The notes: generated by a model not told the origin, from the sequence alone. DNA of 64,000 nucleotides from Betaproteobacteria bacterium (GCA_900299145.1 OMIN01000152.1:14886-78885), one strand, 5' to 3'; shown: positions 1-64,000, numbered from the stretch's first letter. Made by a program: numbers and translations.

Positions 1-832
1 GCCCGGCGTGGATTTCGAGACACGGATTTTTGCCAAGGTGAACGCGGCTGAACTGCTGCGCAAGGAATTGTCGAAGCCTGGTTACTGTTGCGAAGTGATT
101 TCGCTGGGTGCGAACACCGATCCTTATCAGCCCGCCGAGCGCCGGCTCAATATCACGCGCGGCGTGCTTCAGGTTTGCTCTGAGTTTAATCAGCCGGTGG
201 GCATCGTCACCAAGAACGCGCTGATCGAACGCGATCTGGATATTCTCGTGCCGATGGCGCAGCGGCGGCTGGTGAATGTATTTATTTCGGTGAACAATCT
301 GGATCACGACATCGCGCGCAAACTGGAGCCGCGCTGCGTCGCACCCGCACGGCGGCTCGAAGCCATCCGCGCGTTGTCGCGGGCGGGTGTGCCGGTGGGT
401 GTGCTGGTGGCGCCGGTGATTCCGTTCCTGAATGACGATCAGTGCGAAGCCGTGCTTGAAGCCGCGCACGCGGCAGGCGCGACCCAGGCTGGCTATGTCA
501 TGCTGCGCCTGCCGTTTGAAGTAAAAGCGCTATTCCGCGACTGGCTTGAACGGCACTATCCGCTCAAGGCAAAACACGTGATGAGCCGCGTGCACGAGCT
601 GCGCAGCGGGCGCGACAATGATCCAAACTTCGGCAGCCGCATGCGCGGACAGGGTGAGTTCGCGGAACTGCTGTCCAAGAGGTTCGCGCTTGCCAAGCGG
701 CGCATCGGTTACGACATGCGCGAACGCATGCTGCGTAATGCGGCGCTGGATACGACGTTGTTTCGGGTGCCGGTTGTGCAGGAGCCGCAGTCGTTGCAGG
801 GGCCGGAAAAGAGACAGATGAGCTTGTTCTAA
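1..832 (+). CDS. Radical SAM protein (PA0069/SplB-like family), 5' end outside window
   Basis: ORF 8..832 stays open to the window edge. The translation (LGANTDPYQP..., VTKNALIERDLDIL, APVIPFLND) matches my memory of this family. The TAA stop at 830-832 lies in AT-element copy 1. Confidence 0.8.
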   Translation, partial: PGVDFETRIFAKVNAAELLRKELSKPGYCCEVISLGANTDPYQPAERRLNITRGVLQVCSEFNQPVGIVTKNALIERDLDILVPMAQRRLVNVFISVNNLDHDIARKLEPRCVAPARRLEAIRALSRAGVPVGVLVAPVIPFLNDDQCEAVLEAAHAAGATQAGYVMLRLPFEVKALFRDWLERHYPLKAKHVMSRVHELRSGRDNDPNFGSRMRGQGEFAELLSKRFALAKRRIGYDMRERMLRNAALDTTLFRVPVVQEPQSLQGPEKRQMSLF

Positions 833-858
833 GTATTTGTTTTTATTGAATTATTTAT
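830..858 (+). repeat. AT-rich dispersed element, copy 1
   Basis: TAAGTATTTGTTTTTATTGAATTATTTAT. Its TAA is the stop codon of the radical SAM gene. Confidence 0.8.
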
Positions 859-878
859 GACCGGCTTTAGGCGCGCAC

Positions 879-3321: not shown

Positions 3322-3403
3322 GATCGGTCTCGTGTGACGGAAGTGAATGAAGTATGGGAATGTCCGCATTCTACTCCACGCCTCATGCGACAATAGCGGC
3401 ACG

Positions 3404-5086
3404 ATGTTGCGCTTGACTGAACTGAAACTTCCACTCGATCACACCGATGACGCGCTGCGCGCAGCGATCATCGAGCGGCTGGATATCAATGAACACGCGC
3501 TGCTGCGCTACTGCGTTTATCGCCGCGCGGTGGATGCGCGCAAGCGCGGCTCGATTCAGTTCACTTACACCCTCGATGCCGAAGTCGCTGACGAAGAGAC
3601 AGTTTGGATTAGGAATAAAAAACATAATAAAAACAAATACTTGGATAAATCCCCCGACACCGGCTACCGCTTTGTCACGCACGCACAACCGAATTTGAAA
3701 GAGCGGCCCGTGGTGATCGGCAGCGGCCCCTGCGGATTTTTTGCCGGACTGCTGCTGGCGCAAATGGGTTTCCGGCCCATCATTCTGGAACGCGGCAAAA
3801 TCGTGCGTGAGCGCACGCAGGACACGTGGGGCTTGTGGCGGCGCTCGACGCTGAACCCGGAATCGAACGTACAGTTTGGCGAAGGTGGCGCGGGCACGTT
3901 TTCCGACGGCAAGCTCTACAGCCAGATCAAGGACCGGCGTTTTCTGTCGCGCAAGGTGCTCACCGAATTCGTCAAGGCTGGCGCGCCGGAAGAAATTTTG
4001 TACGTGGCGCATCCGCACATTGGCACCTTCCGGTTGGTGGCCATGGTGGAGTCGATGCGCGAAACGATTACCGCGCTGGGTGGCGAAATCCGGTTTGGCT
4101 GCAAGGTAAGCGATATTGAAGTCGATGGCACGGACGGCCGGCAAGTGCGCGCCGTGCATCTCGCTGGTGGTGAACGCATTGCCGCCAGGCACGTGGTGCT
4201 GGCGGTGGGGCACAGCGCGCGCGACACCTTCTCGCTGTTGCATCAGCGTGGTGTATACATGGAGGCAAAGCCGTTTTCGATAGGCTTTCGCATCGAGCAC
4301 CCACAGTCGCTGATCGATGCCGCCCGCTGGGGCCAATTTGCCGGCCACAAGCTGCTGGGCGCGGCGGACTACAAGCTGGTGCATCACTGTGAAAATGCGG
4401 CCCTGCGCCAGCAAAGCCGCTCGGTCTACAGCTTTTGCATGTGCCCCGGCGGCACCGTGGTGGCGGCCACGTCTGAAGTGGGCCGCGTGGTGACCAACGG
4501 CATGAGCCAGTATTCGCGTAACGAACGCAACGCGAATGCAGGGCTTGTGGTGGGCATAACCCCGAAAGATTTTTCGATGCCACCGAAAAGCCATTCGCAG
4601 CCGCGGGAACACGCGCCCGGCCACGTGCTGGCCGGTGTGGATTTTCAGCGCCAATGGGAATCGGCGGCGTTTGTGGCGGGTGGTGGCAACTACAACGCGC
4701 CCGCGCAACGCGTCGGCGATTTTCTCGCCGGGCGTGCATCGCTGGCGCAGGGCAAGGTTGCGCCGTCCTACAAGCCCGGCGTGCGCTGGACGGATGTGTC
4801 GGCATGCGTGCCTGACTACGCGGCGGCCGCGATTCGCGAGGCGCTGCCGGCACTGGACCGCAAGTTGAAAGGCTTTGCAATGGCCGATGCCGTGCTGACG
4901 GGTGTGGAGACACGCACCTCGTCACCGGTGCGCATTACGCGCGATACCGCATATGTGAGCATCAACACGCGCGGGCTGTATCCCGCGGGCGAGGGCGCGG
5001 GTTACGCGGGCGGCATCCTGTCGGCGGCGGTGGACGGGATTGAAGTGGCGGAGGCGGTGGCGTTGAATATCGTGAATCAGTTCTAG
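3404..5086 (+). CDS. FAD/NAD(P)-dependent oxidoreductase (COG2509-like)
   Basis: Dinucleotide-binding motif VVIGSGPCGFFAGLLLA and C-terminal GLYPAGEGAGYAGGI. Start taken at ATG 3404 (MLRLTELKL). Carries in-frame AT-element copy 2. Confidence 0.75.
   Translation: MLRLTELKLPLDHTDDALRAAIIERLDINEHALLRYCVYRRAVDARKRGSIQFTYTLDAEVADEETVWIRNKKHNKNKYLDKSPDTGYRFVTHAQPNLKERPVVIGSGPCGFFAGLLLAQMGFRPIILERGKIVRERTQDTWGLWRRSTLNPESNVQFGEGGAGTFSDGKLYSQIKDRRFLSRKVLTEFVKAGAPEEILYVAHPHIGTFRLVAMVESMRETITALGGEIRFGCKVSDIEVDGTDGRQVRAVHLAGGERIAARHVVLAVGHSARDTFSLLHQRGVYMEAKPFSIGFRIEHPQSLIDAARWGQFAGHKLLGAADYKLVHHCENAALRQQSRSVYSFCMCPGGTVVAATSEVGRVVTNGMSQYSRNERNANAGLVVGITPKDFSMPPKSHSQPREHAPGHVLAGVDFQRQWESAAFVAGGGNYNAPAQRVGDFLAGRASLAQGKVAPSYKPGVRWTDVSACVPDYAAAAIREALPALDRKLKGFAMADAVLTGVETRTSSPVRITRDTAYVSINTRGLYPAGEGAGYAGGILSAAVDGIEVAEAVALNIVNQF
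3614..3644 (-). repeat. AT-rich element, copy 2 (inside the FAD oxidoreductase CDS, in frame)
   Basis: AATAAAAAACATAATAAAAACAAATACTTGG, translated as NKKHNKNKYL. Confidence 0.75.
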
Positions 5087-5118: not shown

Positions 5119-5203
5119 CTGTCATTCCCGCGAAGGCGGGAATCCATAAGCCGTCGCCTGTGGCACGTTTGTTCTGGGTTCCCGCCTGCGCGGGAACGGC
5201 AAG
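5119..5203. repeat. REPIN-type inverted pair of REP palindromes
   Basis: CTGTCATTCCCGCGAAGGCGGGAATCCATAAG ... CTGGGTTCCCGCCTGCGCGGGAACGGCAAG. Confidence 0.8.
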
Positions 5204-5251
5204 ATGGGGTTAATCTGCGTTCATCGGCGTTCATCTGTGGCTAAAAAATAA

Positions 5252-7815: not shown

Positions 7816-7842
7816 TAACTATTTGATTTAATTAATATTTTC
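7816..7842 (+). repeat. AT-rich element, copy 3
   Basis: TAACTATTTGATTTAATTAATATTTTC. It fills the whole 30-bp spacer between two minus-strand genes. Confidence 0.7.
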
Positions 7843-8413
7843 AGCGTGCCAGCAATGACTTGTCACGCACCATTGGAATCTGCCCCGGCGGCGGATTGGC
7901 AATCGCCTCCTCCAGCGATTTCGCGCCGCGCCATTCATTGCTGGGCCTTGCCACGCCTTCGGTGCCGATCTGATCAAGGCCCCAATAAATTTCAAGGTTG
8001 TGGCCGTCGGGGTCGAGAAACTCCACCGCGATCTGCACGCCTGCGCGGCGGCGGCCTTCAAACACAATCGTCGCGCCGCTGTCGCGCAAATGATTGCGCG
8101 CGCGTATCACGTCATCGAGAGAACTCACCTCGAACGCCATGTGATGCAGCCCGCGTTTGTTGTCCGGCCCGGCGGCGCCACCAATCAGCGCCACACCATG
8201 GTGATCCGTATTGCAGCGCATAAACACCATACCACCGGGCATCATGTCGTCGCCGTAAATGTCGGAAACCTTGAAGCCCAGCACGCCGGTGTAAAAGGCG
8301 ATCGAGCGTTCGAGGTTTTCGACCATCAGGACGACGTGGCCGATTTTGTTTAGCGAAAACGGCGGTGCAGATGGGCTGATGGCGGCGCGCAGGCGGTTGG
8401 TGTCTACTGGCAT
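7841..8413 (-). CDS. VOC-family protein (glyoxalase/extradiol dioxygenase fold)
   Basis: 190-aa ORF with a VOC-like pattern: IGHVVLMVENLERSIAFYTGVLGFKV and HHMAFEV. Confidence 0.8.
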   Translation of the reverse strand: MPVDTNRLRAAISPSAPPFSLNKIGHVVLMVENLERSIAFYTGVLGFKVSDIYGDDMMPGGMVFMRCNTDHHGVALIGGAAGPDNKRGLHHMAFEVSSLDDVIRARNHLRDSGATIVFEGRRRAGVQIAVEFLDPDGHNLEIYWGLDQIGTEGVARPSNEWRGAKSLEEAIANPPPGQIPMVRDKSLLAR

Positions 8414-10143: not shown

Positions 10144-10169
10144 GTCATTCCCGCTTTTGCGGGAACGAC
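10144..10169. repeat. Solo REP palindrome
   Basis: GTCATTCCCGCTTTTGCGGGAACGAC. Confidence 0.7.
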
Positions 10170-11555: not shown

Positions 11556-12529
11556 TCCGCCTTGATTTTGGCGGCTTTTGCCACCTTGCTCCAGCGCGCG
11601 AATTCCTGTTTCAGGAATGCGGTGTAGGCCTCGGGTGAAGCTGAGGTCATCGGTTCGAATCCGCCAGAGATGAATTTTTCCTTGAGTTCGGGTGCGTGTG
11701 CGGCTTTGGTGATGGCGCCATGCAGCCGCTCGACGATGATACGCGGGGTTTTCGCCGGCGCCATGATCGCGTACCAGTTGGTGGATTGCAGCGCTGGGAA
11801 ACCCTGCTCGGCCACCGTCGCCACCTCCGGCAGCAAGGGGCTGCGCCGCTCGGGCGTGATTGCCAGCGCGCGCAGCTTGCCGCTTTTCACCGAGGGGAAG
11901 AGCACGGGCAAATCCATCGCCATGCCCTGCACGTGGCCGCCCAGCAAATCGGTGAGTGCAGGCGCGGCACCCTTGTAGGCGACAGCCTGTATCTTGATAC
12001 CCGCGGTAAGGTTCATCAACTCGATCAGCATGCGTGTCGTGCCGCCCGCGCCCGCCGTGCCGAAATCCAGCTTGCCCGGCTGGGTCTTGGCCAGCGCCAC
12101 CAGTTCCTTCAACCCACGCGCGGGCAGCGCCGGATGCACCACGATCAACACTGGACTCATCACCACAGTGGTGATACCCGCGAAATCGTTGATGCTGTCG
12201 TAGGGAATCTTCGCGTAGGTAAACGTGGTCATTACCAGCGGGCTCAAACCCGCGAGGCCGATGGTATAACCATCGGGTGCAGCCTTGGCAACATGATCGG
12301 TACCAATGATCGCGTTGGCACCCGGACGATTCTCGACAATGAAGTTTGTGCCCAGACTTTCGCTGAGCTTGGGCGCAATCAGACGCGCAATGATGTCGTT
12401 GGCACCGCCGGGTGGAAAGCCAATCACCAGGCGCACGGGTTTCGCGGGATATTCCTGTGCAAAAGCCGCTACGGTGAGTAACAGACTTGTTGCGCCAATG
12501 AGATTTCGTAAGTAATTGTTTTTATTCAT
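11552..12529 (-). CDS. Bug/TctC-family substrate-binding protein
   Basis: Signal peptide followed by YPAKPVRLVIGFPPGGAND and AYKG. The start codon and first 8 codons lie inside AT-element copy 4. Confidence 0.85.
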   Translation of the reverse strand: MNKNNYLRNLIGATSLLLTVAAFAQEYPAKPVRLVIGFPPGGANDIIARLIAPKLSESLGTNFIVENRPGANAIIGTDHVAKAAPDGYTIGLAGLSPLVMTTFTYAKIPYDSINDFAGITTVVMSPVLIVVHPALPARGLKELVALAKTQPGKLDFGTAGAGGTTRMLIELMNLTAGIKIQAVAYKGAAPALTDLLGGHVQGMAMDLPVLFPSVKSGKLRALAITPERRSPLLPEVATVAEQGFPALQSTNWYAIMAPAKTPRIIVERLHGAITKAAHAPELKEKFISGGFEPMTSASPEAYTAFLKQEFARWSKVAKAAKIKAE

Positions 12530-12540
12530 TATTTATGTAG
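12509..12540 (+). repeat. AT-rich element, copy 4 (contains a Bug gene start codon)
   Basis: TAAGTAATTGTTTTTATTCATTATTTATGTAG. The reverse strand encodes MNKNNYLR. Confidence 0.8.
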
Positions 12541-15464: not shown

Positions 15465-15525
15465 GGCGGGCTCCGGGGCAAATTTGCTATAGGTGGAGGA
15501 ATTATAAGGGTTTAGTGCCGGCCTG

Positions 15526-15551
15526 AAATATTCAATTAAAACATATAGTTA
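15526..15551 (-). repeat. AT-rich element, copy 5
   Basis: AAATATTCAATTAAAACATATAGTTA. Confidence 0.7.
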
Positions 15552-17259: not shown

Positions 17260-17290
17260 TAAGTATTTGTTTTTATTGTATTTTTATGAA
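17260..17290 (+). repeat. AT-rich element, copy 6
   Basis: TAAGTATTTGTTTTTATTGTATTTTTATGAA, between convergent Bug genes. Confidence 0.8.
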
Positions 17291-21075: not shown

Positions 21076-21105
21076 TAAGTATCTGTTTTAATTGAATTAT
21101 TTTTA
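21076..21105 (+). repeat. AT-rich element, copy 7
   Basis: TAAGTATCTGTTTTAATTGAATTATTTTTA, in a divergent intergenic region. Confidence 0.8.
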
Positions 21106-23422: not shown

Positions 23423-23440
23423 CAGTCGCTACTGCAGTGA

Positions 23441-24718: not shown

Positions 24719-24748
24719 TAACTATTTGTTTTTATTAAATATTTTTTC
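24719..24748 (+). repeat. AT-rich element, copy 8
   Basis: TAACTATTTGTTTTTATTAAATATTTTTTC. Confidence 0.8.
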
Positions 24749-27168: not shown

Positions 27169-27197
27169 ATAACTATCTGTTTTTATAGGGAATTTTA
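27169..27197 (+). repeat. AT-rich element, copy 9
   Basis: TAACTATCTGTTTTTATAGGGAATTTTAA. Its 3' end includes the stop codon of the DinB-family gene (minus strand). Confidence 0.7.
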
Positions 27198-27707
27198 ATA
27201 GCTCTGCGGCGCCTCGCGCAGAAACACCGGTAAATCGGTCACCGGCGCGCGATGCCCCTTCACATTGAACATCATGTCGCCGGCAAAGCCGCGGTGATAC
27301 GCCGTGTGGTGGTATAGATGCAGCAGCATTTCGCCTTGCGACATCACCACGCGGTTGCCGCCGATCAACACCACCGGCCGCCGGTCGGCCAGCGTTTCGT
27401 CGGTTTGCTTGCTACTCCACTGCTCATACCACTGGTCTATAGCCTGCTGGTTGGCCCACCACTCGGCGAGCGTGGGCGATTCGGCGGAATTGCGCGCCGT
27501 CATCTGGTGATCGCGGCCTTCCAGATGCGCCTGCCAGATGAGATCGATGACGTAAATATGATTCATCGTGTGCACGATGTTCTTGAAGAGACTCGTGCGC
27601 GGCTTCATCGCCTCGCCCTCGGGCAGCGCGGCAATGGCGTCGTACCAAACCTTGTTCGACCACGTGTTGTAGCGCGTCAGCATGCGCGCGGTTTGTGTGT
27701 TAATCAT
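27195..27707 (-). CDS. DinB-family protein
   Basis: TRYNTWSNKVWYDAIAALPE and a HLYHHTAYHRG-type His triad pattern. Confidence 0.75.
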   Translation of the reverse strand: MINTQTARMLTRYNTWSNKVWYDAIAALPEGEAMKPRTSLFKNIVHTMNHIYVIDLIWQAHLEGRDHQMTARNSAESPTLAEWWANQQAIDQWYEQWSSKQTDETLADRRPVVLIGGNRVVMSQGEMLLHLYHHTAYHRGFAGDMMFNVKGHRAPVTDLPVFLREAPQSY

Positions 27708-29751: not shown

Positions 29752-30585
29752 ATGCTGATCTGCGATTCACAAGTCCACGTCTGGGGTGCCAACACGCCGG
29801 AGCGCCCGTGGCCCGCCCGCGCGCACGCACAACGCGAGATTCCGCTCGGCCACGAAGAACTGCTGCGCGAGATGGACGCCGCCGGTGTCGAGCGGCTGGT
29901 GATCGTGCCGCCCTCGTGGGAGGGCGACCGCAACGATCTCGCGTTTGCGGCGGTGAAGGCGAATCCGAACCGGTTCGCCATCATGGGGCGCTTCAACCCG
30001 GAAGCGCCGGACGCCAAACAAACCATCAAGGGCTGGCGCGATCAGCCAGGCATGCTCGGCATGCGCTTCACATTTCACATTCCCGTGCTGCAACAGCCGC
30101 TGATCGACGGCAAATTCGATTGGGTGTGGGCCGAAGCTCAAGCGCAGGGCATCGTCATGATGATCCTCGTGCCGCAGCACATGGTCGAAGTCATTGACCG
30201 CGTGGCCGAGCGCTACCCAAAACTCAAAATCGTGATGGATCACATGGCGCTCACCAGCGGCAAACCGTTCGACGAGACCTTCCGCGATTTCGACAAACTG
30301 CTGCCGATTGCCAAACGCCCCAATGTCGCGGTCAAGGCTACCGCGCTGCCGTGCTATTCCGCCGAGCCGTACCCGTTCACGCGCGTGCAGGCTTACGCGC
30401 GTAAGGCGTACGAGGCATTCGGGGGCAAGCGAACATTCTGGGGCAGTGATCTGTCGCGCTCGCCGGTACCGTACCGTGAGCAGATTGATATGTGGCTGAA
30501 AGACGCGCCGTGGCTCAAGGCAGAGGACAAGGAATGGGTAATGGGGCGCGGCATTTGCGAATGGCTGGGATGGAAAATTCCGTAA
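29752..30585 (+). CDS. Amidohydrolase-2-family protein
   Basis: MLICDSQVHVW start and the DHMA motif typical of the metal-dependent amidohydrolase_2 family. The TAA stop lies in AT-element copy 10. Confidence 0.8.
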   Translation: MLICDSQVHVWGANTPERPWPARAHAQREIPLGHEELLREMDAAGVERLVIVPPSWEGDRNDLAFAAVKANPNRFAIMGRFNPEAPDAKQTIKGWRDQPGMLGMRFTFHIPVLQQPLIDGKFDWVWAEAQAQGIVMMILVPQHMVEVIDRVAERYPKLKIVMDHMALTSGKPFDETFRDFDKLLPIAKRPNVAVKATALPCYSAEPYPFTRVQAYARKAYEAFGGKRTFWGSDLSRSPVPYREQIDMWLKDAPWLKAEDKEWVMGRGICEWLGWKIP

Positions 30586-30610
30586 AAAATACAATAAAAA
30601 CAGATAGTTA
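30583..30610 (-). repeat. AT-rich element, copy 10
   Basis: TAAAAAATACAATAAAAACAGATAGTTA. Its first TAA is the amidohydrolase stop codon. Confidence 0.8.
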
Positions 30611-34906: not shown

Positions 34907-36192
34907 TCCGACGCCTCTTCGCCATCGGCTTTATTTTCTTTTGCGTGTCGATTGCGTGGATGGTGCTCGCGGGTGCGACCTCAACCCGAACGCACTCGGC
35001 GGATTCGAGTCTGAAGTCGCGCGTGTCGCAATTGTGGGGCGCGCCACAGGCGCAGTTGCCGCCGCACATCAGTACCGAGGAAAAAATCCGCCGTAAAGTG
35101 GAAAGCACGGAGAACGGCAACAAGGTCGAGAAAATCGTCGATGACGTGATTGTCCGACCCATCGCCCTGGATTCGAGCGACATCAAAGTTGATCTTAAAC
35201 TCGATCATCGGCAAAAAGGCCTGCTGTGGTATTCCACCTATGCCGTGACGTTTGACGCGACGTACGCGTTTGCCAATGCGGAGAACGTGCCGCGCGAGAT
35301 CAAGGTGGCGCTGCCGTTTCCAGCTGAGCGTGCGGTGTTCGACGATCTGCGCTTTGATCTGGAAGGCGCGACCTGGTTGTCACCACCCACGCCGGGCGAC
35401 GGCAAAATCATCGGATGGACGCGGCTGGCGCCCGGCGAGAAGGCGACGCTGCGCGTGCGCTATCGCAGTCAAGGTCTGGATCGCTGGGCGTATAAATTCG
35501 GCAGCGGCGTGTCGGAAGTCAAAAATTTCAAACTCGCCATGCGCACGGATTTCGAGGCGATTGATTTCCCGGAAGAGGCGATTTCGCCCACCGCCAAACA
35601 GCGTGACGGCAACGGTTGGGCGCTGACTTGGGAATACCGCCGTTTAGTTTCCGGCGTCAACATCGCCATGGCCATGCCGGAAAAATTGCAGCCCGGCCCG
35701 CTCGCCAGTCAGATTTCGCTGTTCGCGCCGGTGTCGCTGTTTTTCTTCATCGTTGTATTGCTGACCATTGGCGTGGTTCGCAATGTTGATATACACCCGA
35801 TGCACTTCTTCTTTGTGGCGGCGGCGTTCTTCGCGTTTCACTTGCTGTTTGCGTATCTGGCCGATCAGGTTTCCATTCACCTGGCGTTTGGTGTCGCGGC
35901 GGCAGTGTCGATGCTGCTCACCATCAGCTATCTGCGCATTGTGTTCGGCGCGGCGTTTGCCTTCCTTGCTGCCGGCACTGCGCAGTTGGTCTATCTGGTA
36001 TTGTTCTCGTATGCGTTTTTCTTCAAGGGATTGACCGGCTTGGCGATCACCATCGGCGCGATCGCAACGCTGTTCGTGTTGATGCAAGTTACGGCGCGGG
36101 TGAACTGGAACATGGTGTTTGCCGGGCGAAATGCACGCACAATTGCGCCGGAAATACCCGCAGCGCCGGAATCACCTGAGCCAGTGTCTTAA
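34903..36192 (+). CDS. CreD-like inner-membrane protein
   Basis: N-terminal TM, a large periplasmic domain and a C-terminal TM bundle. IHPMHFFFVAAAFFAFHLLFAYLADQ parallels E. coli CreD LHPMQYLLVGLSLVMFYLLL as I remember it. Confidence 0.7.
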   Translation: MIRRLFAIGFIFFCVSIAWMVLAGATSTRTHSADSSLKSRVSQLWGAPQAQLPPHISTEEKIRRKVESTENGNKVEKIVDDVIVRPIALDSSDIKVDLKLDHRQKGLLWYSTYAVTFDATYAFANAENVPREIKVALPFPAERAVFDDLRFDLEGATWLSPPTPGDGKIIGWTRLAPGEKATLRVRYRSQGLDRWAYKFGSGVSEVKNFKLAMRTDFEAIDFPEEAISPTAKQRDGNGWALTWEYRRLVSGVNIAMAMPEKLQPGPLASQISLFAPVSLFFFIVVLLTIGVVRNVDIHPMHFFFVAAAFFAFHLLFAYLADQVSIHLAFGVAAAVSMLLTISYLRIVFGAAFAFLAAGTAQLVYLVLFSYAFFFKGLTGLAITIGAIATLFVLMQVTARVNWNMVFAGRNARTIAPEIPAAPESPEPVS

Positions 36193-36218
36193 AAATTACA
36201 TAAAAAAACAAAGAGTTA
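36190..36218 (-). repeat. AT-rich element, copy 12
   Basis: TAAAAATTACATAAAAAAACAAAGAGTTA. Its TAA is the CreD-like stop codon. It forms the spacer before the A2M gene. Confidence 0.65.
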
Positions 36219-39200: not shown

Positions 39201-42081
39201 TGAAAAGCGCATTCAGCTTGATGAAAAGCCGTTCACCATCGCTGCTGCGGGTGCGAAAGTGGCGTTGGCCACTGACGCGCCGGGCAGTTACGCCTATGTC
39301 GTGCGCGACGCGGTGGGGCAGGACTTGGCGCGCGTGTCATATGAAGTGGCGGGTGCGGCGAACCTTACGCGCTCGCTGGAGAAAAACGCTGAGTTGCAGG
39401 TAAAGCTCAGCAAAAAAGACTTTGCGGCAGGCGAAGACATCGAACTGTCGATACAAGCGCCGTATGTCGGCTCGGGCCTTATCACTATCGAGCGGGAGCG
39501 CGTCTTTGCGCACGCGTGGTTCACCAGCAAGACCACGGCCTCCACGCAGAAGATCACGTTACCCAAGGATTTCGAGGGCAACGGTTACGTGACGGTGACG
39601 TTCATCCGCGATGCAGGATCGGATGAAATTTACGCGAGTCCGCTAGCTTACGGCGTGCAACCTTTTTCGGTGAATCTGGACCGCCGCAAACTCAAAGCCA
39701 CGGTGAAGGCCCCCGACCTGGTGAAGCCCGGCGACACCATCAAATTCAGGCACTCGACCAATCAGCCGTCGCGTATCGTGGTATTCGCGGTGGATGAAGG
39801 CATTCTGCGGGTGGCGCGTTACAAGACGGCAGATCCGCTGGGTTTCTTTTTCCAGAAGCGCGCGCTGGAGGTGAAAACCTTCCAGATACTTGATTTGGTT
39901 TTGCCGGAATTTAAGCGCTTCATGGCGGCGGCTGCGCCCGGCGGCGACGGCGATGGCGCGCTGGGCAAGCATCTGAATCCGTTCAAGCGTAAGAACGACA
40001 AACCGGCAGCGTATTGGTCGGGCATTATCGAAAGCGGCCCGCAGGAGCGCGAACTCACGTGGCAGGTGCCGGAAACCTTTAACGGCACGCTGCGGGTGAT
40101 GGCGGTGGCGGTGAACGAGGATTCCATCGGCGTGTTCGAGAAGAAAACCTTGTCTCGTGGCGACTTTGTGTTGTCACCGAACGCGCCGTTGACGGTGACA
40201 CCGGGCGATGAATTCGATGTAAGCGTCGGCGTGGCGAACAACGTGGCAGGTTCGGGTGCGGATGCGCAGATCGCGGTGACGCTGGCGGCTTCGCCGCATC
40301 TGGAAATCGTGGGTGCCGCGATCAACACCATCAAAGTGGGCGAACTGCGCGAAGGTGTCACCAGCTTCAAGGTGCGCGTGAAGGACGAATTGGGCGCGGG
40401 GACGCTGAACTTCAGCGCGGCTGGCATGAACAAGAGCGCAAAGCTGGGTACCAGCATCAGCGTGCGTCCGGCACAGCCGCATATCACGTTGCTGACTGCG
40501 GGCATTGTACGCAATGGAACAGCCGAAGCGCCGGTGACGCGCAATCTGTATCCGCACTATCGCAAGCTGGAGGCGAGCATTTCGCATGTGCCGTTGGCGC
40601 TGGCGCATGGCCTCACGGCGTATCTGCAAGGCTTCCAGTATTCGTGCACCGAGCAACTGGTGAGCATGGGCATGCCTGCGCTGGTGCTTGGCAACCGGCC
40701 GGAATTTGGTTATGTGAAATCGAAGGACTACAAAACGCTTGACGATCTGATTAACGTGCTACGAGGCCGGCAAAACGGCGAGGGCGCGTTTGGTCTGTGG
40801 GCGGCGAATGCGCACGTGGTGGATTATGTGTCGGTCTACGCCATGCACTTTTTGATTGAGGCGCGCGAGCGGGGCCGTGCTGTGCCCAATGACATAATTG
40901 TCAATGGAAACAATTACTTACGATCATTGGCCAGCAACGACAGCGGCACACTCGCCGACGAACGCACACGCGCCTACGCCATCTATGTGCTGACGCGGCA
41001 GGGCATAGTCACCACCAACTTTGCGGCGGCGGTGCAAAAGCGGTTGGAAACGAATCACCCCAAGGTGTACGCGCAGGACATTGCCACCGCCTACCTTGCC
41101 GCAAGTTATCAGTTGATGAAGCAACAGCGGCTGGCGGATCAGTTGATTGCCGGCGTGACGTTTGAAAAGCGCCCCGCAGACGGTGGAGCCTACATTGACA
41201 CACTCACGTCCAACGGCAAATTGCTGGATGTCCTCGCGCGGCATTTCCCCGAGCGGCTGGCGAAGGTTTCGCCCAGTGTGGTGGAAAGCATGCTGAAGGA
41301 CATTGCCGCAGGCGGTTACAACACGCACTCTGCCGGCAACGCGATACTGGCGTTTGATGCTATGGCGGCTGCAAGTGAAAAGCTGCCGCCGGGCACCTTG
41401 GCCGCCGCCGAAGTGCTGCGCAATAACAACACGCGCGGGTTGGTTCTGCCTCCGAATGCCGTGCCTCGTGCCAGTTTCTCGGTGGACGCGGCGAAGCTGC
41501 AATTCACCAACAAGGCGAATCTGCCCGCGTATTACGTGGTCGAGCAAACCGGTTTCGAGCGCGGCCTGCCGGAGAAAGAAATCAAGAATAGCCTTGAAAT
41601 CCTGCGCGAGTATGTCGATGCCAAGGGCAATCCGGTGAAATCGGTGAAGGTTGGCGACGAAATTGAAGTGCGGTTGAGGTTCCGCGTCATTGGCCGCGAG
41701 GGTGTGGACAACGCGGCGCTGGTGGATTTGTTGCCCGGCGGATTTGATCTGGTGCTGAACACTGCGCCCGCGCAGCAACAGGAGGGTGAAGGTGAGGGAC
41801 GGGAAGGACGCGGTGAAGCGGAAAACCGCAAGTGGCGCGCGCCGATTGGGATCAAGGGCACGCAGCAGCGTCCGATATGGCAGCCTGACTACGCAGACCT
41901 GCGCGAAGACCGTGTGGTGCTCTACGGTTCAGTCAGCAAGGACATCCAGGAATTCGCCTACCGCATCAAGGCCACCAACACTGGTACGTTTGTGGTGCCG
42001 CCGGCGTACGGCGAGTCGATGTATGAGCGCAGTGTACAGGCGCGGTCGCTGGGGGCGAAGATGACGGTGGAAAAGCGCTAG
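36232..42081 (+). CDS. Bacterial alpha-2-macroglobulin-family protein (1949 aa), thioester type
   Basis: Very large MG-domain protein. CTEQ thioester motif at 40645-40656 (FQYSCTEQLV). Followed by pbpC, as in yfhM-pbpC operons. N-terminal TM anchor. Confidence 0.9.
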   Translation: MSIAAPSSTPTGLLRRLLRPLIGDVQWLAPGWLRGLGNAAGFFAMAFSSWVRSDMRRAAIAGGVGLALIAGGVAGKAWYDRLPKPHEVTVEVVTPDPTPVDQPNAKPDPLMIKFSESAATLAGVGKDVTTGIEVEPRIDGTWKWADDRTLTLTPKTDWPVGTEVVVTLAKKGLFAEHVRLQDYRVKFTTAPFVAKITEAQFYQDPADPASKKIVATVNFTHPVDAADFEKRVVLREEGKDGVILGLGADDKKFKVTYDKFKVNAYIHSEPMPIPPQPVKIAVTVEAGAKSSRGGNGITAPVKQSVTVPGLYSLALQGMSLTLAENERLEPDRILMVNLSADTHEKEVAGKVRAWVLPLHHPNTKPEERKQPFAWNNPQQIGPEVLAQSEPLKLEAVPAEREHVQQHGFKYNAEAGRYVYVKVEKGMKSFGGYLMEKERDGIMRVQRYPRQLRIASQGALLALSGEKKLAVLVRDVEGIRFEVGRLLPQQLQHLVTMSDGGFAKPNFDKGFDDDNLAERYTQVEDAPPSEPGKPNYLALDLGKYLDGEGGRRGIFFVKVESYDQKNKRTTGAVDKRLVVVTDLGMVVKRAIDGSQDVFVQSIATGQPVAGTAIEVLGRNGQVIASQTTDAAGRARLPDFAGFTREKAPAVYVARKAGDTSFLPYERNDRVIDFSRFDVGGVNSSADAGKLSAFLFSDRGIYRPGEEIRVGMIVKAADWASRITGAPLEYELTDARGLVLRKDKIKLSASGFEEVRHATQDTSPTGDYTVSLYIVKDGQRDSQLGSVTVKVQEFMPDRLKMSARFSRESIEGWVTPQDLKANVSLQNLFGTPAEARRVTATMTLQPALLSFPKYRDYQFYDPQFAKEGFAEPLSDSKTNDKGEVELDLNLARFAKATYRLHLVTQGFEADGGRGVSAEAATLVSNMPFLVGYKADGDLNYVSRASKRSVELIAIDPKAAKTDARDLKLIHFERKFVSVLTKQANNTYKYESREKRIQLDEKPFTIAAAGAKVALATDAPGSYAYVVRDAVGQDLARVSYEVAGAANLTRSLEKNAELQVKLSKKDFAAGEDIELSIQAPYVGSGLITIERERVFAHAWFTSKTTASTQKITLPKDFEGNGYVTVTFIRDAGSDEIYASPLAYGVQPFSVNLDRRKLKATVKAPDLVKPGDTIKFRHSTNQPSRIVVFAVDEGILRVARYKTADPLGFFFQKRALEVKTFQILDLVLPEFKRFMAAAAPGGDGDGALGKHLNPFKRKNDKPAAYWSGIIESGPQERELTWQVPETFNGTLRVMAVAVNEDSIGVFEKKTLSRGDFVLSPNAPLTVTPGDEFDVSVGVANNVAGSGADAQIAVTLAASPHLEIVGAAINTIKVGELREGVTSFKVRVKDELGAGTLNFSAAGMNKSAKLGTSISVRPAQPHITLLTAGIVRNGTAEAPVTRNLYPHYRKLEASISHVPLALAHGLTAYLQGFQYSCTEQLVSMGMPALVLGNRPEFGYVKSKDYKTLDDLINVLRGRQNGEGAFGLWAANAHVVDYVSVYAMHFLIEARERGRAVPNDIIVNGNNYLRSLASNDSGTLADERTRAYAIYVLTRQGIVTTNFAAAVQKRLETNHPKVYAQDIATAYLAASYQLMKQQRLADQLIAGVTFEKRPADGGAYIDTLTSNGKLLDVLARHFPERLAKVSPSVVESMLKDIAAGGYNTHSAGNAILAFDAMAAASEKLPPGTLAAAEVLRNNNTRGLVLPPNAVPRASFSVDAAKLQFTNKANLPAYYVVEQTGFERGLPEKEIKNSLEILREYVDAKGNPVKSVKVGDEIEVRLRFRVIGREGVDNAALVDLLPGGFDLVLNTAPAQQQEGEGEGREGRGEAENRKWRAPIGIKGTQQRPIWQPDYADLREDRVVLYGSVSKDIQEFAYRIKATNTGTFVVPPAYGESMYERSVQARSLGAKMTVEKR
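40894..40920 (-). repeat. AT-rich element, copy 13 (inside the A2M CDS, in frame)
   Basis: ATAATTGTCAATGGAAACAATTACTTA. Together with the following CGA, the 16-nt string AAACAATTACTTACGA (40908-40923) is identical to copy 4 read in reverse. Encodes IIVNGNNYLR. Confidence 0.65.
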
Positions 42082-45957: not shown

Positions 45958-47148
45958 ATGACGCCGCTGATAAAGCCCATGTGGATCGCCATGCTGCTGG
46001 TGGTGATCAACATGCTCGGCATGCGCGGCAGCAAGATTACGGTGTCGCTGATGTCGCTGGAACTCGGCGCTTCCCAGTTCATGGTAGGCGTGATTGTCGC
46101 GCTGTATTCGCTGCTGCCGATGTTCCTTGGCCTTTATGCGGGGAAGCTGACAGACCGGCTTGGCGTGCGGCTGCCAATTATTTTTGGCTCCACGGGCATT
46201 GCGCTGGGCCTGGCCATCCCGGGTTTCTTTCCGGTGCTGCCGGCGCTATTCGTGTCGGCGGCGGCGATTGGCGCGGCGCACATTTTTTACAACGTGTCGA
46301 TCCAGAACGCCATCGGCCTGATGAGCCCGAAGGAAGACCGCGCGCGTAATTTCAGCAATTTCGCGATGATGATGTCGATCAGCGGCTTTCTTGGTCCGCT
46401 GGTCAGCGGCATGCTGATAGATGCGTTTGGCCATGCCAAAACCTATCTGTGCCTGACGCTGGGGCCGGTTGCCGGCGTGATCATCATGCTGGCGTTACCG
46501 AAATTCGCGGCCAATCTGCGCGGCGGGGCGGAGGGCGGTAATGGTCGCAACGGTGGCAAGGGCGGCAAGGGTGGCGAAGACGAGGGTATCAAGCTTTCGG
46601 GCTTCGGGTTGCTTGGCAATAAGCCGCTGCGCCGCGTGATCGTGATGAGCGGCATACTGATGACGGCGCTGGATTTGCTGCATTTTTATATGCCGATCTA
46701 CGGGCATTCCATTGGCCTTGCCGCTTCCAAAATCGGCATGATCATGGCGGCGTTTTCGGCGGCGGCGTTCGTGGTGCGCGTATGGATGCCAGACATTGTC
46801 AAACGTTTCGGCGAACACAAAGTGCTGACGTTCGCGCTGGGCGTGGCGGCGGTGGCGTATCTGATTATTCCGTGGATTAAGCAGGTGCCGCTGCTGATGA
46901 TGATCACGTTCACGCTGGGCCTCGGCATGGGCTGCGGCCAGCCGCTGATCATGATGATGATCTACAACCGCGCACCTGAAGGCCAGTCGGGCGAAGCGTT
47001 GGGTTTGCGCCAAACCATCAATCACTTCACGCACATGGCAGTGCCGCTGGCGTTCGGCGCCATTGGCTCGGCGTTCGGTGTGTGGCCGGTGTTTCTTACC
47101 AATTCGCTCATGCTGATGGGTATCGGCTATGTCAGCAGAAGACGATAA
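45958..47148 (+). CDS. MFS transporter
   Basis: Start at ATG 45958 (MTPLIKPMW). 12-TM pattern. Gly/Lys-rich central loop (GGNGRNGGKGGKGGEDEG). The TAA stop lies in AT-element copy 14. Confidence 0.8.
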   Translation: MTPLIKPMWIAMLLVVINMLGMRGSKITVSLMSLELGASQFMVGVIVALYSLLPMFLGLYAGKLTDRLGVRLPIIFGSTGIALGLAIPGFFPVLPALFVSAAAIGAAHIFYNVSIQNAIGLMSPKEDRARNFSNFAMMMSISGFLGPLVSGMLIDAFGHAKTYLCLTLGPVAGVIIMLALPKFAANLRGGAEGGNGRNGGKGGKGGEDEGIKLSGFGLLGNKPLRRVIVMSGILMTALDLLHFYMPIYGHSIGLAASKIGMIMAAFSAAAFVVRVWMPDIVKRFGEHKVLTFALGVAAVAYLIIPWIKQVPLLMMITFTLGLGMGCGQPLIMMMIYNRAPEGQSGEALGLRQTINHFTHMAVPLAFGAIGSAFGVWPVFLTNSLMLMGIGYVSRRR

Positions 47149-47175
47149 GTAATTGTTTTTATTGAATAATTTCTA
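47146..47175 (+). repeat. AT-rich element, copy 14
   Basis: TAAGTAATTGTTTTTATTGAATAATTTCTA. Its TAA is the MFS stop codon. Confidence 0.8.
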
Positions 47176-49635: not shown

Positions 49636-49696
49636 AGCGTTTCCAGTGTCACCGGCCCGCACCATCGCAGGCCCGTAGCGGATTATAACGTACGTC

Positions 49697-49724
49697 TAAA
49701 AAAATCAATTAAAACAAATACTTA
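49697..49724 (-). repeat. AT-rich element, copy 15
   Basis: TAAAAAAATCAATTAAAACAAATACTTA. Confidence 0.8.
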
Positions 49725-57068: not shown

Positions 57069-57097
57069 TAAGTATTTGTTTTTATTGATATTTTTTT
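57069..57097 (+). repeat. AT-rich element, copy 16
   Basis: TAAGTATTTGTTTTTATTGATATTTTTTT, on the left flank of the kinase islet. Confidence 0.8.
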
Positions 57098-57153
57098 CGT
57101 CAATGATGAGCCGCCTGTGCTGCGTTAGCGTCTGCTGACAAACCATCCTAAAC

Positions 57154-58135: not shown

Positions 58136-58228
58136 TGACGAGAATGTGGTTGAGCGGGCTAACTAGTTTAATGCAACAAAACTGCAGGATAAAATCCCCA
58201 ACTGTCGGATAACATTCTCAATATTTTC

Positions 58229-58257
58229 AAAAAATATCATTTAAAAACAAATGCTTA
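58229..58257 (-). repeat. AT-rich element, copy 17
   Basis: AAAAAATATCATTTAAAAACAAATGCTTA, on the right flank of the kinase islet, inverted relative to copy 16. Confidence 0.75.
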
Positions 58258-59423: not shown

Positions 59424-59533
59424 CTGTCATTCCCGCGAAAGCGAGTATCCCCTTCCCTCAGGGAAGGTAGGATGGGTGGTTTTTTTCAAATGGCACGTGT
59501 GTTATGGGTTCCCGCTTTCGCGGGAACGACAAG
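59424..59533. repeat. REPIN-type element
   Basis: CTGTCATTCCCGCGAAAGCGAGTATCC ... TTATGGGTTCCCGCTTTCGCGGGAACGACAAG. Confidence 0.8.
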
Positions 59534-61819: not shown

Positions 61820-61929
61820 AGTGGGTTTGGATGATACGCGACGTAGGTCATGGCGTCACTCTGCCGCCGCGCCGTTGTGCACCGTCGTATAATTCTGCCC
61901 TTCGCTTTTGATGACTGTGACCCCCCGCC

Positions 61930-64000
61930 GTGCGCACCGACCTCGAACGTTTCTTCAGCCCCAAATCCATTGCGCTCATCGGCGCTTCACAAGATCTCAT
62001 CACCATCAGCGGCCAGCCGCTGTCGCACATGCTGAATCACGGTTACGGGGGCAAGCTGTATCCGGTGAACCCGCGATATCAGGACATCCTCGGCCAGAAG
62101 TGTTATCCATCACTCGCTGATGTGCCGGAGACGCCGGATCTTGCACTGATTCTGATCAACGCCTCTCGCGTCGCGGACATGCTCGAACAATGCGGCAAGA
62201 AGGGCGTGCCGTATGTGATTATTTTCAGTTCGGGTTTTTCCGAGACCGGCGCCGAAGGCGTGGCGCTGCAGAAAAAGCTCGTTGCCATTGCCGAGCAGTA
62301 CAACATCGGCGTCATTGGCCCCAACTGCCAGGGCATGATGAACGTTGCGGATAAAGTATGGGCGGGTTTCGGCTCCGTGTTTTTCACCAAAGAGTTCCCG
62401 GCGGGCGGCGTATCGATGGTGTCGCAGTCGGGCGGTTTTGGCTTCTCGGTGCTGGCGCTGTGCTCTGAGGGTGGGCTGGGTTTCCGGCAGATGGTCACCA
62501 CCGGCAATGAAATCGGCACCTCCACGCTGGAATTCATCGATTACTTTGTGCGCGACCCCGGCACGGACATCATCGCCTGCTATCTGGAAGGCGCGCGCGA
62601 CGTCAATCGCACGGTGGAAATCGGGCTAAAGGCGATGGATGCGGGCAAGCCCATTTTGATGTGGAAGGTGGGCAACACCGACGAAGGGCAAAAAGCCGCA
62701 GCCTCGCACACCGCCAACCTCGGCGGCGCCATGGCACTTTACAAGGCTGCGTTCAAACAAAGCGGCATTATTCAGGTGGACGACGTGCAGGATGTCGTCG
62801 ACTATGGCCGCATGTTCCGCTGCGGCAAATTGCCCAAAGGCAACCGCATCGCGATGATTACGGTGTCGGGTGGCGCGGGCATATTGATGACCGACGAGTG
62901 TGTGTCGGGCGGAATGCGGCTCGCGCAACTCGCGTCGGAAACGACTGAAAAGCTGCGCGAGTTTGTGCCATCGTACGGCTCGCTCGCCAATCCGGTGGAT
63001 GTCACCGCGTCTATCTTCAACGACCTCGCATTGATACGCCGCACGTTGCAAGCCATCGTCGACGATCCGGGTGTCGATTGCATCGCGCTGCTCAATGCCT
63101 CGTTGCAAGGCGAAATCGCCACCAAAATCGCCGCCGAAATCATTGCCATTGCGAAGACGACCGACAAGCCCATCGCCTGCGCATGGAGCGCGCGCAATGA
63201 CATGGCGAAAGATGCGTATGCCGCACTGGATGCCGCGCACATCCCGCACTATAAGTCGCCGGTGCGCTGCGGGCGTGCGTTTGCCGTCTTGAGCGGTTAC
63301 GCCGAGGCCAAGCGGCGCATCGCGGCACAGCGTAATGAGCAGCCGTTGGTTATAGAAAAAACGCAAATAAAACAAATACTTACCGGAAGGTCAGCTGACG
63401 TTACCGAATATGAAGCCAAGAAGGTATTGGCCGAATACGGCATCCCGGTGACGCAGGAAGCTCTCGCCACCACACGTGAACAAGCCGTGGCGATTGCGAA
63501 GAAAATTGGCTACCCGGTGGCGATCAAGGTTCAGTCGCCCGATATCTCGCACAAGACCGAAGCCAAGGCCGTAAAGCTCGGGTTGAATTCCGACGCCGAA
63601 CTCGCGGCGGCATACGACGAAGTCATCGCCAACGCCAAGGCCTACAACGCCAAGGCGCAACTCGATGGCGTGCTGGTGCAGGAAATGTTGCGCGGCGGCA
63701 CCGAGGCGATACTCGGCATCACCAACGATCCGCTGTTCGGGCCGGCGGTGATGTTTGGTTTGGGTGGCATCTTTGCCGAGATCATGAAGGACGTATCCTT
63801 CCGCCTTGCACCGGTAACGCCGGCCATGGCGCGCGAAATGATTTCGGAAATCAAAGGTTATCCGCTGTTGACGGGCGCCCGCGGCCGCGGGCACGCGGAT
63901 GTCGATGCGCTGGCCGACGCGATCGTGAAGTTATCCGCGCTAGCCGTGGACTTGAAAGATCATGTGGCCGAGCTGGATATCAATCCGTTGTTCGTCATGG
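61930..64000 (+). CDS. ADP-forming acyl-CoA synthetase / acetate--CoA ligase-family protein (CoA-binding + ATP-grasp), 3' end outside window
   Basis: Not in the ORF track because there is no stop inside the window. Manual translation from GTG 61930, just after the in-frame TGA at 61918-61920, gives MRTDLERFFSPKSIALIGAS...GKLYPVNP...GPNCQG...SQSGG...EYEAKKVLAEYGIPV...GYPVAIKVQS. Carries in-frame AT-element copy 18. Confidence 0.8.
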   Translation, partial: MRTDLERFFSPKSIALIGASQDLITISGQPLSHMLNHGYGGKLYPVNPRYQDILGQKCYPSLADVPETPDLALILINASRVADMLEQCGKKGVPYVIIFSSGFSETGAEGVALQKKLVAIAEQYNIGVIGPNCQGMMNVADKVWAGFGSVFFTKEFPAGGVSMVSQSGGFGFSVLALCSEGGLGFRQMVTTGNEIGTSTLEFIDYFVRDPGTDIIACYLEGARDVNRTVEIGLKAMDAGKPILMWKVGNTDEGQKAAASHTANLGGAMALYKAAFKQSGIIQVDDVQDVVDYGRMFRCGKLPKGNRIAMITVSGGAGILMTDECVSGGMRLAQLASETTEKLREFVPSYGSLANPVDVTASIFNDLALIRRTLQAIVDDPGVDCIALLNASLQGEIATKIAAEIIAIAKTTDKPIACAWSARNDMAKDAYAALDAAHIPHYKSPVRCGRAFAVLSGYAEAKRRIAAQRNEQPLVIEKTQIKQILTGRSADVTEYEAKKVLAEYGIPVTQEALATTREQAVAIAKKIGYPVAIKVQSPDISHKTEAKAVKLGLNSDAELAAAYDEVIANAKAYNAKAQLDGVLVQEMLRGGTEAILGITNDPLFGPAVMFGLGGIFAEIMKDVSFRLAPVTPAMAREMISEIKGYPLLTGARGRGHADVDALADAIVKLSALAVDLKDHVAELDINPLFVM
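63355..63382 (-). repeat. AT-rich element, copy 18 (inside the acyl-CoA synthetase CDS, in frame)
   Basis: GAAAAAACGCAAATAAAACAAATACTTA, translated as EKTQIKQIL in the linker before the ATP-grasp domain. Confidence 0.75.

Follow-up and report, generated by a model that had tools for sequence, protein, structure and literature searches.

A dispersed element in GC-rich DNA

What is the role of an AT-rich element of about 30 bases that recurs throughout the DNA of a betaproteobacterium whose genome has a GC content of about 60%? In the 64-kb stretch of DNA analysed here (the window), the original prediction had claimed at least 18 dispersed copies of such an element, and a position weight matrix recovers all 18 of those listed where none is expected, and in the orientations given (10 forward and 8 reverse). 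The matrix, which has 31 columns, finds exactly 18 loci at every threshold from 12 to 24 bits, and Markov simulations gave expectations of only 0.17 loci at 12 bits and 0.00 at 24 bits. Two segments at 5241-5268 and 18592-18620, which had been suggested as possible decayed copies, both score below 12 bits and do not belong to the set.

The element consists of a 16-bp core, TAASTATYTGTTTTWA, followed by a tail made up of A and T only. In the window, the core has 8 perfect matches, 7 with one mismatch, 1 with two and 2 with three, against 0, 0, 0.05 and 0.2 expected, respectively. One of the three-mismatch matches (24736) overlaps the copy at 24719 and is therefore not a separate copy, and the copy at 33408 lies beyond three core mismatches. 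The 13-mer TATYTGTTTTWAT is found 14 times in the window with at most one mismatch (0.08 expected). The scores are bimodal and the consensus is strong, with 14 of the 18 copies reaching at least 38 bits and four weaker ones (33408, 36190, 40894 and 58229 in the numbering of the prediction). The density in the window is one copy per 3.6 kb and the spacing is regular, with a CV of 0.45 for 21 copies over 81 kb (P about 4e-5).

The element is asymmetric and hairpin-free, as had been claimed: folding of its DNA yields 0 to -2.9 kcal/mol with z-scores that are not significant, and the aligned copies have neither terminal inverted repeats nor a target-site duplication. A separate family of classical, hairpin-forming REP-like elements is present in the same window. 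Scans of the 64-kb window with Rfam (at gathering thresholds) and for tRNAs returned no matches. An intrinsic bend caused by phased A-tracts was dropped as a candidate, as the two T5 runs lie 14 bp apart and are out of helical phase.

Position between genes

Between convergent genes, copies with a perfect core are located at 830..859 (plus strand, 50.4 bits), at 17260..17289 (plus, 49.8 bits) in the 50-bp spacer of two TctC genes assigned by Pfam, at 30581..30610 (minus, 46.2 bits) and at 57069..57098 (plus, 49.8 bits), the last flanked by an enolase-superfamily gene and a protein kinase gene. The divergent spacer of a formamidase gene and a luciferase-like gene holds a perfect core at 21076..21105 (plus, 49.6 bits), and others are found downstream of a Rieske oxygenase gene at 24719..24748 (plus, 50.4 bits), in an intergenic position at 49695..49724 (minus, 52.1 bits) and, with a shortened tail, at 27170..27199 (plus, 38.2 bits). 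The claim that copies can make up whole spacers is borne out by the one at 7816..7845 (plus, 40.8 bits), which is the entire 30-bp spacer between a glyoxalase and a TctC gene, both on the minus strand. The 39-bp spacer between the genes for an MFS transporter and a 2-hydroxyacid dehydrogenase is filled by a copy at 47146..47175 (plus, 47.8 bits), and that between the CreD and alpha-2-macroglobulin genes by a weaker one at 36189..36218 (minus, 28.3 bits). Further intergenic copies lie at 15522..15551 (minus, 44.6 bits), between a peptidase S15 gene and an HbpS-like gene (Pfam), and at 58228..58257 (minus, 31.8 bits), a weaker copy with one core mismatch. The copy at 12509..12538 (plus, 43.8 bits) is placed between two TctC genes (Pfam) and, judging from the sequence, probably overlaps the ATG and first codons (MNKNNYL) of the one at 11552-12529 on the minus strand. 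Read directly from the sequence, copies supply the predicted stop codons at 832 (TAA of a radical-SAM gene), 27195 (DinB gene, through the 3' TTA of the element), 30585 (amidohydrolase gene), 36192 and 47148 (TAA).

An AT-rich and mostly intergenic element that often follows directly on stop codons and contains TTG and T-runs could be a transcription signal, either a promoter or UP element or a terminator without a hairpin. Context statistics on 126 strong copies from the window and about 90 GC-rich loci speak against this. In tandem contexts the two orientations are equally used (31:28), in agreement with the predicted absence of a fixed orientation relative to genes, and the shares of copies in convergent (18%), divergent (16%) and tandem (66%) spacers match those of background spacers (16%, 18% and 65%). 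Because both orientation and gene context match the intergenic-spacer background, the element does not behave as a transcription signal. An intrinsic terminator with a GC-rich hairpin and a T-run was rejected on account of the missing hairpin, the equal orientations and the copies in divergent spacers; a sigma-70 promoter or UP element was rejected on account of the background context proportions, the copies in convergent spacers and the lack of conservation downstream of the element, where nothing is conserved at the distance of a -10 box. With some copies also being genic, this reading is already largely refuted and very improbable. Polar motifs such as Chi and KOPS were rejected as well, as the element is 30 bp long and its orientations are split 10:8 in the window amid a cumulative GC skew that rises almost monotonically; strand bias at the replichore level was examined over 81 kb only. 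Ter and dif were considered and rejected.

Copies within genes

Open reading frames contain 4 of the 18 window copies (3614, 33408, 40894 and 63355 in the numbering of the prediction), which the prediction had not noticed, nor had it noticed the probable overlap of the copy at 12509 with a gene start. The copy at 3614..3643 (minus, 44.8 bits) encodes NKKHNKNKYLD in an FAD-dependent oxidoreductase gene (3347-5086, plus strand), which is called as a single gene of 579 aa. In the gene of a 708-aa ADP-forming acyl-CoA synthetase, likewise called as one gene, the copy at 63353..63382 (minus, 43.6 bits) encodes IEKTQIKQILT, which alignment to a PDB entry places in an interdomain linker. Two weak copies, at 33408..33437 (plus, 26.5 bits) in a histidine kinase gene (31935-33695, minus strand) and at 40891..40920 (minus, 24.5 bits) in the gene of a 1949-aa alpha-2-macroglobulin, have the A-rich strand as the sense strand. 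Outside the window, coding copies are found at six further loci (L039, L101, L012, L015, L085 and L103), and the coding share of copies is about 10-25%. Coding copies occupy loops, linkers or variable segments, and the A-rich strand is read in each of its three frames (NKNKYL, YSIKTNTY and IKQILT).

High copy number, a strong consensus and whole spacers filled would also be expected of a small mobile element of the non-autonomous, MITE-like or REP-like kind, which multiplies by inserting itself, and a miniature selfish insertion sequence was among the roles first proposed. The genic copies contradict this. The copy in PurL (L039) aligns without gaps to 1t3t and that in oligopeptidase A (L101) without gaps to 4ka8, while the acyl-CoA synthetase is shorter than its homologue at the linker bearing the copy. 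At the site in the FAD-dependent oxidoreductase, the out-clade locus L136 has 22 residues with GC-rich codons and the in-clade locus L134 has 22 residues including the tag. These alignments indicate that copies arise by point substitution in existing sequence and not by insertion. As the copies lie in frame in real genes and the gap tests reveal no insertion, the mobile-element reading is refuted where coding copies are concerned. For the element as a whole, it is opposed by the missing terminal inverted repeats, target-site duplication and hairpin, by copies that are stable at orthologous sites across species, by loss through substitution instead of excision (site 30583 in L114) and by the presence in the genome of a separate, classical hairpin REP family. 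The element resembles REP/BIME and MITE sequences in being short, high-copy and mostly intergenic; members of those families carry terminal inverted repeats or a hairpin and multiply by insertion, whereas the element has neither and originates by substitution. The selfish-insertion proposal has therefore been abandoned, with next to no probability left for it.

Conservation and distribution in the clade

Alignment of orthologous loci, which had been proposed together with the prediction, shows that relatives with 75-82% DNA identity retain, at the orthologous site, each strong copy that falls within an aligned block, and that out-clade L136 carries the same-length codons and not a gap. In orthologous copies the core is nearly invariant and the flanks contain indels. 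The copy at 3614 is conserved in L072, that at 49695 in L069 and that at 24719 in both L114 and L115, where synteny stops at its 5' end. The shortened copy at 27170 is aligned with a full-length orthologue in L114, and the weaker copy at 36189 has a strong orthologue (47.2 bits) in L053. L053 retains the orthologue of the copy at 30581, and in L114 substitutions have eroded it. Strains that are nearly identical (99.9% identity; L001-L006 and L110-L113) differ at too few positions for gained or lost copies to be seen, and a metagenome scan with the Rieske oxygenase yielded only two useful relatives, L114 and L115.

More than 100 stretches contain an exact 22-mer of the element, and most of them belong to about 30 GC-rich betaproteobacterial or Burkholderiales MAG species, which bear additional copies as well. 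Each of the two in-clade loci, L134 and L135, has 4-5 copies in 21.6 kb; the out-clade locus L136 (GC 0.61) has none in 21.6 kb, nor any alternative over-represented “dialect”. Matches to the 22-mer in other phyla are single and lie in AT-rich DNA, and a scan of viral contigs gave four single matches, three of them in AT-rich contigs, and no enrichment. The distribution of the tag is thus all-or-none by clade.

The loss of synteny at some copies could point to a site of recombination, or a hotspot of crossover, that bounds exchangeable gene cassettes. Three independent homology ends lie no more than 1 bp from the 5' (TAA) end of a copy, with neighbouring genes that differ: one at window position 24718, where L114 and L115 lack the TctC gene 23499-24443, one at 30610, where L114, L053 and L108 differ in what lies downstream, and one between L056 and L066. 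On the other hand, 148 of 160 alignment ends are away from any copy, and breaks at the edge of the tag are expected because, in a spacer that decays fast, alignable sequence runs out with the conserved tag. Genic copies and stable syntenic copies would make no sense as cassette borders, and the element has no inverted core and no associated recombinase gene, which makes this explanation improbable. A boundary or insulator element, as first suggested, may still be possible: the regular spacing and the three synteny breaks adjoining copies agree with it, but the genic copies do not, and the context statistics argue against a boundary of transcription units.

Comparison with known uptake sequences

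Uptake sequences mark DNA that competent cells take up in preference to other DNA, and through them Haemophilus and Neisseria tell which DNA is their own. They are documented in two families only, the Pasteurellaceae and the Neisseriaceae (bioRxiv 10.1101/2025.10.24.684340). Their hallmarks are a gap test that shows no insertion, an anomalously strong consensus, no orientation bias and AT-rich flanks (PMC1626085); they evolve by point mutation and have the significant even spacing described by Karlin (PMC1939737). They sit at poorly conserved residues and number 765 to 1892 copies per genome, a range within which the density of one tag per 3.6 kb falls (PMC2817400). The uptake sequences of the Pasteurellaceae, AAGTGCGGT for the Hin-type and ACAAGCGGT for the Apl-type, each combine with two AT-rich flanking segments to a length of about 29 bp. 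The tag shares with them a specific core with AT-rich flanks over about 30 bp and an expected hundreds to thousands of copies per genome, the absence of orientation bias, the anomalously strong consensus and the origin by substitution (PMC1626085, PMC1939737), coding copies at poorly conserved residues (PMC2817400) and stability at orthologous sites, as well as even spacing and occurrence throughout a family-level clade. It differs in having a core that is itself AT-rich although the genome is GC-rich, in lying mostly between genes, in a density about three times lower than in H. influenzae and in its host, an uncultured freshwater betaproteobacterium. The Neisseriaceae, which also belong to the class Betaproteobacteria, have the DUS, AT-GCCGTCTGAA and its dialects, which is bound by the minor pilin ComP. 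Like the tag, the DUS is clade-specific and over-represented, with many intergenic copies. Unlike the tag, which has neither inverted pairs nor hairpins, the DUS is 10-12 bp long without a flanking motif, and about half of its copies occur in terminators as inverted pairs (bioRxiv 10.1101/2025.10.24.684340). No known uptake sequence reaches the length or the AT content of the tag. The literature search found no relevant paper on the sequence of the element itself and no uptake sequences for Burkholderiales, Comamonadaceae or freshwater bacteria.

Over-represented, strong in consensus, independent of orientation and context, derived by substitution, stable at orthologous sites and regularly spaced, the element could be, by analogy, a genome-wide self-recognition tag for DNA uptake that is kept by biased uptake and recombination, a reading to which we give about an even chance. 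Of the roles first proposed, an uptake-type or protein-binding signal is the one that the evidence favours. We infer an uptake receptor as the recognising protein, and hosts capable of transformation. Of the machinery that natural competence calls for (type IV pilus, ComEA, ComEC and DprA), a PilB/MshE-type ATPase was seen, in clade locus L102, and it does not discriminate; the source lineage is uncultured. Three observations run against the uptake reading: the tag exceeds known uptake sequences in length and AT content, the coding share is lower than the 35-65% tabulated for USS and DUS (PMC2817400), and regular spacing together with an asymmetric, AT-rich site of about 30 bp would fit an intracellular architectural protein equally well.

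A nucleoid protein as the main rival

Such a protein is the basis of the main rival to the uptake tag. The copies would form an array of high-affinity sites to which a nucleoid-associated or architectural protein binds with sequence specificity, either IHF-like or with H-NS-like nucleation sites, and selection would hold them about 3.6 kb apart to organise loops or supercoil domains. The regular spacing agrees with this, as does the asymmetric, AT-rich and hairpin-free site of about 30 bp. Copies in long genes (PurL, alpha-2-macroglobulin) are found where a need for a site every few kilobases must fall in coding sequence, and orthologous conservation fits selection in place. On the reverse strand, the core AAACARATASTTA has one mismatch to the IHF consensus, WATCARNNNNTTR, and it has an upstream A-tract as in IHF sites. 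The mismatch (T to A) affects the T of ATC, which is well conserved among IHF sites, and positions that are free in IHF sites (STAT, the TTTT run and ATTG) are strongly conserved in the element. IHF sites, including those in RIP/BIME-type elements of E. coli and in Correia elements of Neisseria, are likewise asymmetric over about 30 bp, with an A/T tract and a segment like the 13-bp core, and are dispersed between genes. The element departs from them in the mismatch at a conserved position, in its far tighter conservation, in not being part of a palindromic or mobile unit and in overwriting coding sequence. We know of no nucleoid protein with about 1000 sites of such specificity. A near-invariant consensus of 16 bp, with perfect copies outnumbering mismatched ones, is also atypical of intracellular sites (argument in PMC1626085). 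An array of nucleoid-protein sites is possible, at a clearly lower probability than uptake, and it is doubtful, somewhat more so, that the tag, instead of being an uptake signal, anchors a highly sequence-specific chromosome-organising protein of a new kind, with about 1000 sites every 3.6 kb or so. Selection would then have to be strong enough for the sites to overwrite conserved enzymes such as PurL, and this chromosomal “punctuation” would have no described counterpart.

A model for the proposed uptake tag

In the uptake-tag model, a DNA receptor of natural transformation, probably associated with a type IV pilus, would bind the 16-bp core, and the AT-only tail would aid binding or bending. 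Cells would prefer tagged fragments of DNA from their own lineage for uptake, and these would replace the homologous part of the chromosome. Mutations that improve near-matches would as a result be over-transmitted, and this molecular drive could lead to tags in both orientations at a density of about one per 3.6 kb. As an AT-rich sequence in a genome of 60% GC, the tag would be tolerated mainly in spacers, where it would be squeezed between genes and often provide their stop codons. In long genes, it would overwrite poorly conserved loops, linkers or the starts of signal peptides, with the A-rich strand as sense.

Implications

Pasteurellaceae and Neisseriaceae are both host-associated. If uptake is confirmed, the element would be a third, independently evolved uptake tag, and its hosts would be abundant, uncultured, free-living Betaproteobacteria of lakes. 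This would mean self-preferring natural transformation in environmental plankton, and the tag could be used as a sequence handle with which gene flow is measured in situ, and as a bait for identifying the receptor. It would also represent an extreme test of molecular drive, since an AT-rich 30-mer is imposed on conserved enzymes and on a genome of 60% GC. Should the binder instead prove to be intracellular, copies set regularly about 3.6 kb apart would suggest that nucleoids are organised by a new principle.

Copy number, consensus and distribution of the element

The dispersed repeat of the original prediction is real, as both the 13-mer TATYTGTTTTWAT and a 31-column weight matrix built from the window copies give counts far above expectation. 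With at most one mismatch the 13-mer has 14 matches in the window against 0.08 expected, and the matrix returns exactly 18 loci at each threshold from 12 to 24 bits, which implies that intermediate scores are absent; simulated sequence yields 0.00 matches at 24 bits. The information resides in a 16-bp core, TAASTATYTGTTTTWA, followed by a tail of about 12 bp made of A and T only. Of this core there are eight exact matches, seven matches with one mismatch, one with two and two with three (expected: 0, 0, 0.05 and 0.2, respectively); one of the two three-mismatch matches, at 24736, overlaps copy 24719, and copy 33408 lies outside these counts as its core has more than three mismatches. The profile recurs in copies of other genomes that did not serve as search seeds. 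No folding of single strands of the element was found, and there is no support for the supposed decayed copies at 5241 and 18592.

Among the matches listed for a collection of species-representative genomes, more than 100 stretches contain an exact 22-mer version. Nearly all of them belong to about 30 MAG species with the label Betaproteobacteria or Burkholderiales, from lakes, streams and glacier-fed waters; the few listed from other phyla are single matches in AT-rich DNA. Additional, unseeded copies are present in many of the 8-kb blocks around 22-mer matches, and the phage contigs scanned show no enrichment. The tag carriers whose record titles read "Bordetella parapertussis" (L036, L041, L049, L059, L066, L069, L078, L079, L081, L085, L091, L095, L098) are clearly mislabelled uncultured freshwater Burkholderiales lake MAGs.

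The window, with 60% GC, comes from an uncultured freshwater betaproteobacterium and encodes many catabolic enzymes as well as at least 10 TctC/Bug-family solute receptors in its 64 kb. Several lake metagenomes contain the same DNA at 99.9% identity, and the strain is nearly clonal at this level over metagenomes of different projects (L001-L006, L110-L113). GC is lowest (0.53) at 18000-20000, where a DUF3800 protein gene lies (18579-19748) and no tag copy is present. This stretch may be recently acquired, which would agree with a depletion of the tag in foreign genes.

A second repeat family, unrelated to the tag, has the shape of a REP-like hairpin, GTCATTCCCGCGAAAGCGGGAAT; its arms number 10 in the window (0 expected), and the stem, ATTCCC-N8-GGGAAT, has the form of Neisseria dRS3. 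The hairpin is single at 5121-5143, 10147-10169, 15658-15680 and 33739-33761 and paired at 31775-31853, 48231-48309 and 59426-59530, the arms often being inverted pairs about 35 bp apart; all copies are intergenic and two carry compensatory changes (CCAGCG...CGCTGG). Outside the window it is found at 6533-6633 of the relative L114. At the site of the TctC gene 23499-24443, this relative of 82% identity has about 680 bp with a REP-like palindrome instead (window 23422-24717 vs L114 6048-6729), one border of the indel being the 5' end of the tag at 24719.

Stability at orthologous sites and origin

In every block alignable between species (75-82% DNA identity), the partner of a strong copy has the element at the same site, as seen at 3614, 24719, 27169, 36190 and 49697 and in several locus pairs, with the core almost unchanged and the adjoining spacer gaining substitutions and indels. 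The weaker partner of copy 30583 in L114 differs through substitutions, not through a 30-bp gap. Coding copies were subjected to the gap test devised for USS by Redfield and colleagues (PMC1626085): the copies in PurL (L039) and oligopeptidase A (L101) align gap-free with Salmonella PurL and a solved homologue, respectively, and the linker carrying the acyl-CoA synthetase copy is if anything shorter than that of its homologue. In the FAD-dependent oxidoreductase family, NKNKYL is kept at the site in about 15 relatives, while in more distant ones the residues are unrelated and their number differs by 0 to 3. In DNA comparison, loci L134 and L135 of the clade carry the tag at this site and have four to five copies in 21.6 kb. 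Locus L136, outside the clade, has a similar GC content, 71% protein identity and the same neighbouring genes. Here the 22 tag-containing codons have 22 ordinary GC-rich ones as their counterpart, and the weight matrix finds no match of 12 bits or more in its 21.6 kb.

Between them, the coding copies are read in all three frames of the A-rich strand. Together with the gap tests and the same-length empty site in L136, this shows that the element is written into existing sequence by substitution and not pasted in. The proposal of a miniature selfish insertion sequence, and a mobile element in general, is thereby essentially refuted, since the gap tests show no insertion.

A different change in the oxidoreductase gene (3347-5086, + strand) is an in-frame insertion of 13 residues, DFSMPPKSHSQPR, a patchy but conserved indel (window ~4625-4665, residues ~428-441), which among close homologues is restricted to a scattered subset (P0001, P0003, P0015 and P0021 of alignment A1).

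Gene context and spacing

Gene calls in public assemblies of this strain, together with Pfam, place 13 of the 18 window copies between genes. As originally described, copies often take up whole spacers (7816, 36190, 47146), and several provide stop codons (832, 27195, 30585, 36192, 47148). The ATG and first codons (MNKNNYL) of a TctC precursor appear to come from copy 12509. Four copies lie inside genes: 3614 in the 579-aa FAD-dependent oxidoreductase (NKKHNKNKYLD), 63355 in a 708-aa ADP-forming acyl-CoA synthetase, within the linker between its domains (IEKTQIKQILT), and the weaker copies 33408 and 40894 in histidine kinase and alpha-2-macroglobulin genes.

Pooling the window with about 90 GC-rich loci of related genomes gives 126 strong copies, which bear out the lack of fixed orientation (31 vs 28 in tandem spacers). 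Their use of convergent (18%), divergent (16%) and tandem (66%) spacers cannot be told apart from the background proportions among all spacers of at least 30 bp (16%, 18% and 65%), and aligned copies show no conservation at promoter distances beyond the element. A general function as promoter, UP element or terminator is therefore ruled out, and a transcription signal is essentially refuted. Three synteny breaks coincide exactly with the element's 5' end, as a recombination site bounding gene cassettes would produce, but a simpler cause is that, in a decaying spacer, the conserved tag is the last sequence that can still be aligned. A recombination site of this kind is very improbable.

The 18 window copies and three in 17 kb of independently fetched flanking sequence (L128, L131) are far more evenly spaced than random points (intervals 0.9 to 7.4 kb; CV 0.45; P ~4e-5), and weaker copies stand exactly where strong ones are missing. 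An array of sites bound by an architectural protein would also agree with even spacing and with an AT-rich, asymmetric site about 30 bp long; read on the reverse strand (AAACARATASTTA after an A-tract), the element resembles the IHF consensus with one mismatch. However, this mismatch falls on a conserved position, positions left free by IHF are conserved in the element, and a near-invariant consensus is atypical of intracellular sites; this explanation is possible but rather unlikely.

A proposed uptake-type tag

The properties of the element are those published for DNA uptake sequences (PMC1626085; PMC1939737; PMC2817400), for which even spacing is also on record (Karlin 1996, as cited in PMC1939737). 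Like these, it has a very strong consensus and occurs about once per few kb, in either orientation and regardless of gene context. It arises by point substitution, even at tolerant positions of conserved proteins, stays in place at orthologous sites over the long term, has an all-or-none distribution by clade, consists of a core with an AT-rich flank, and shows significantly even spacing. We know of no other class that has all these properties together. The best explanation, on this analogy and at about even probability, is an uptake-type self-recognition tag. Tag-bearing DNA would be preferentially taken up, and biased uptake with homologous replacement would maintain the tag. One clade member encodes a PilB/MshE-type ATPase (T2SSE and MshEN domains; L102 6414-7940), and a tag copy (6388-6418) directly adjoins the stop codon of this pilus or secretion ATPase gene; the presence of such an ATPase does not discriminate between the readings.

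A 2025 survey lists such tags only for Pasteurellaceae and Neisseriaceae (bioRxiv 10.1101/2025.10.24.684340). If the element is an uptake tag, it would be a third, independently evolved family, hosted by free-living, uncultured and abundant lake bacteria, and unusual in forcing an AT-rich 30-mer on a GC-rich genome; should it instead be an intracellular anchor, it would represent a new kind of chromosome punctuation.
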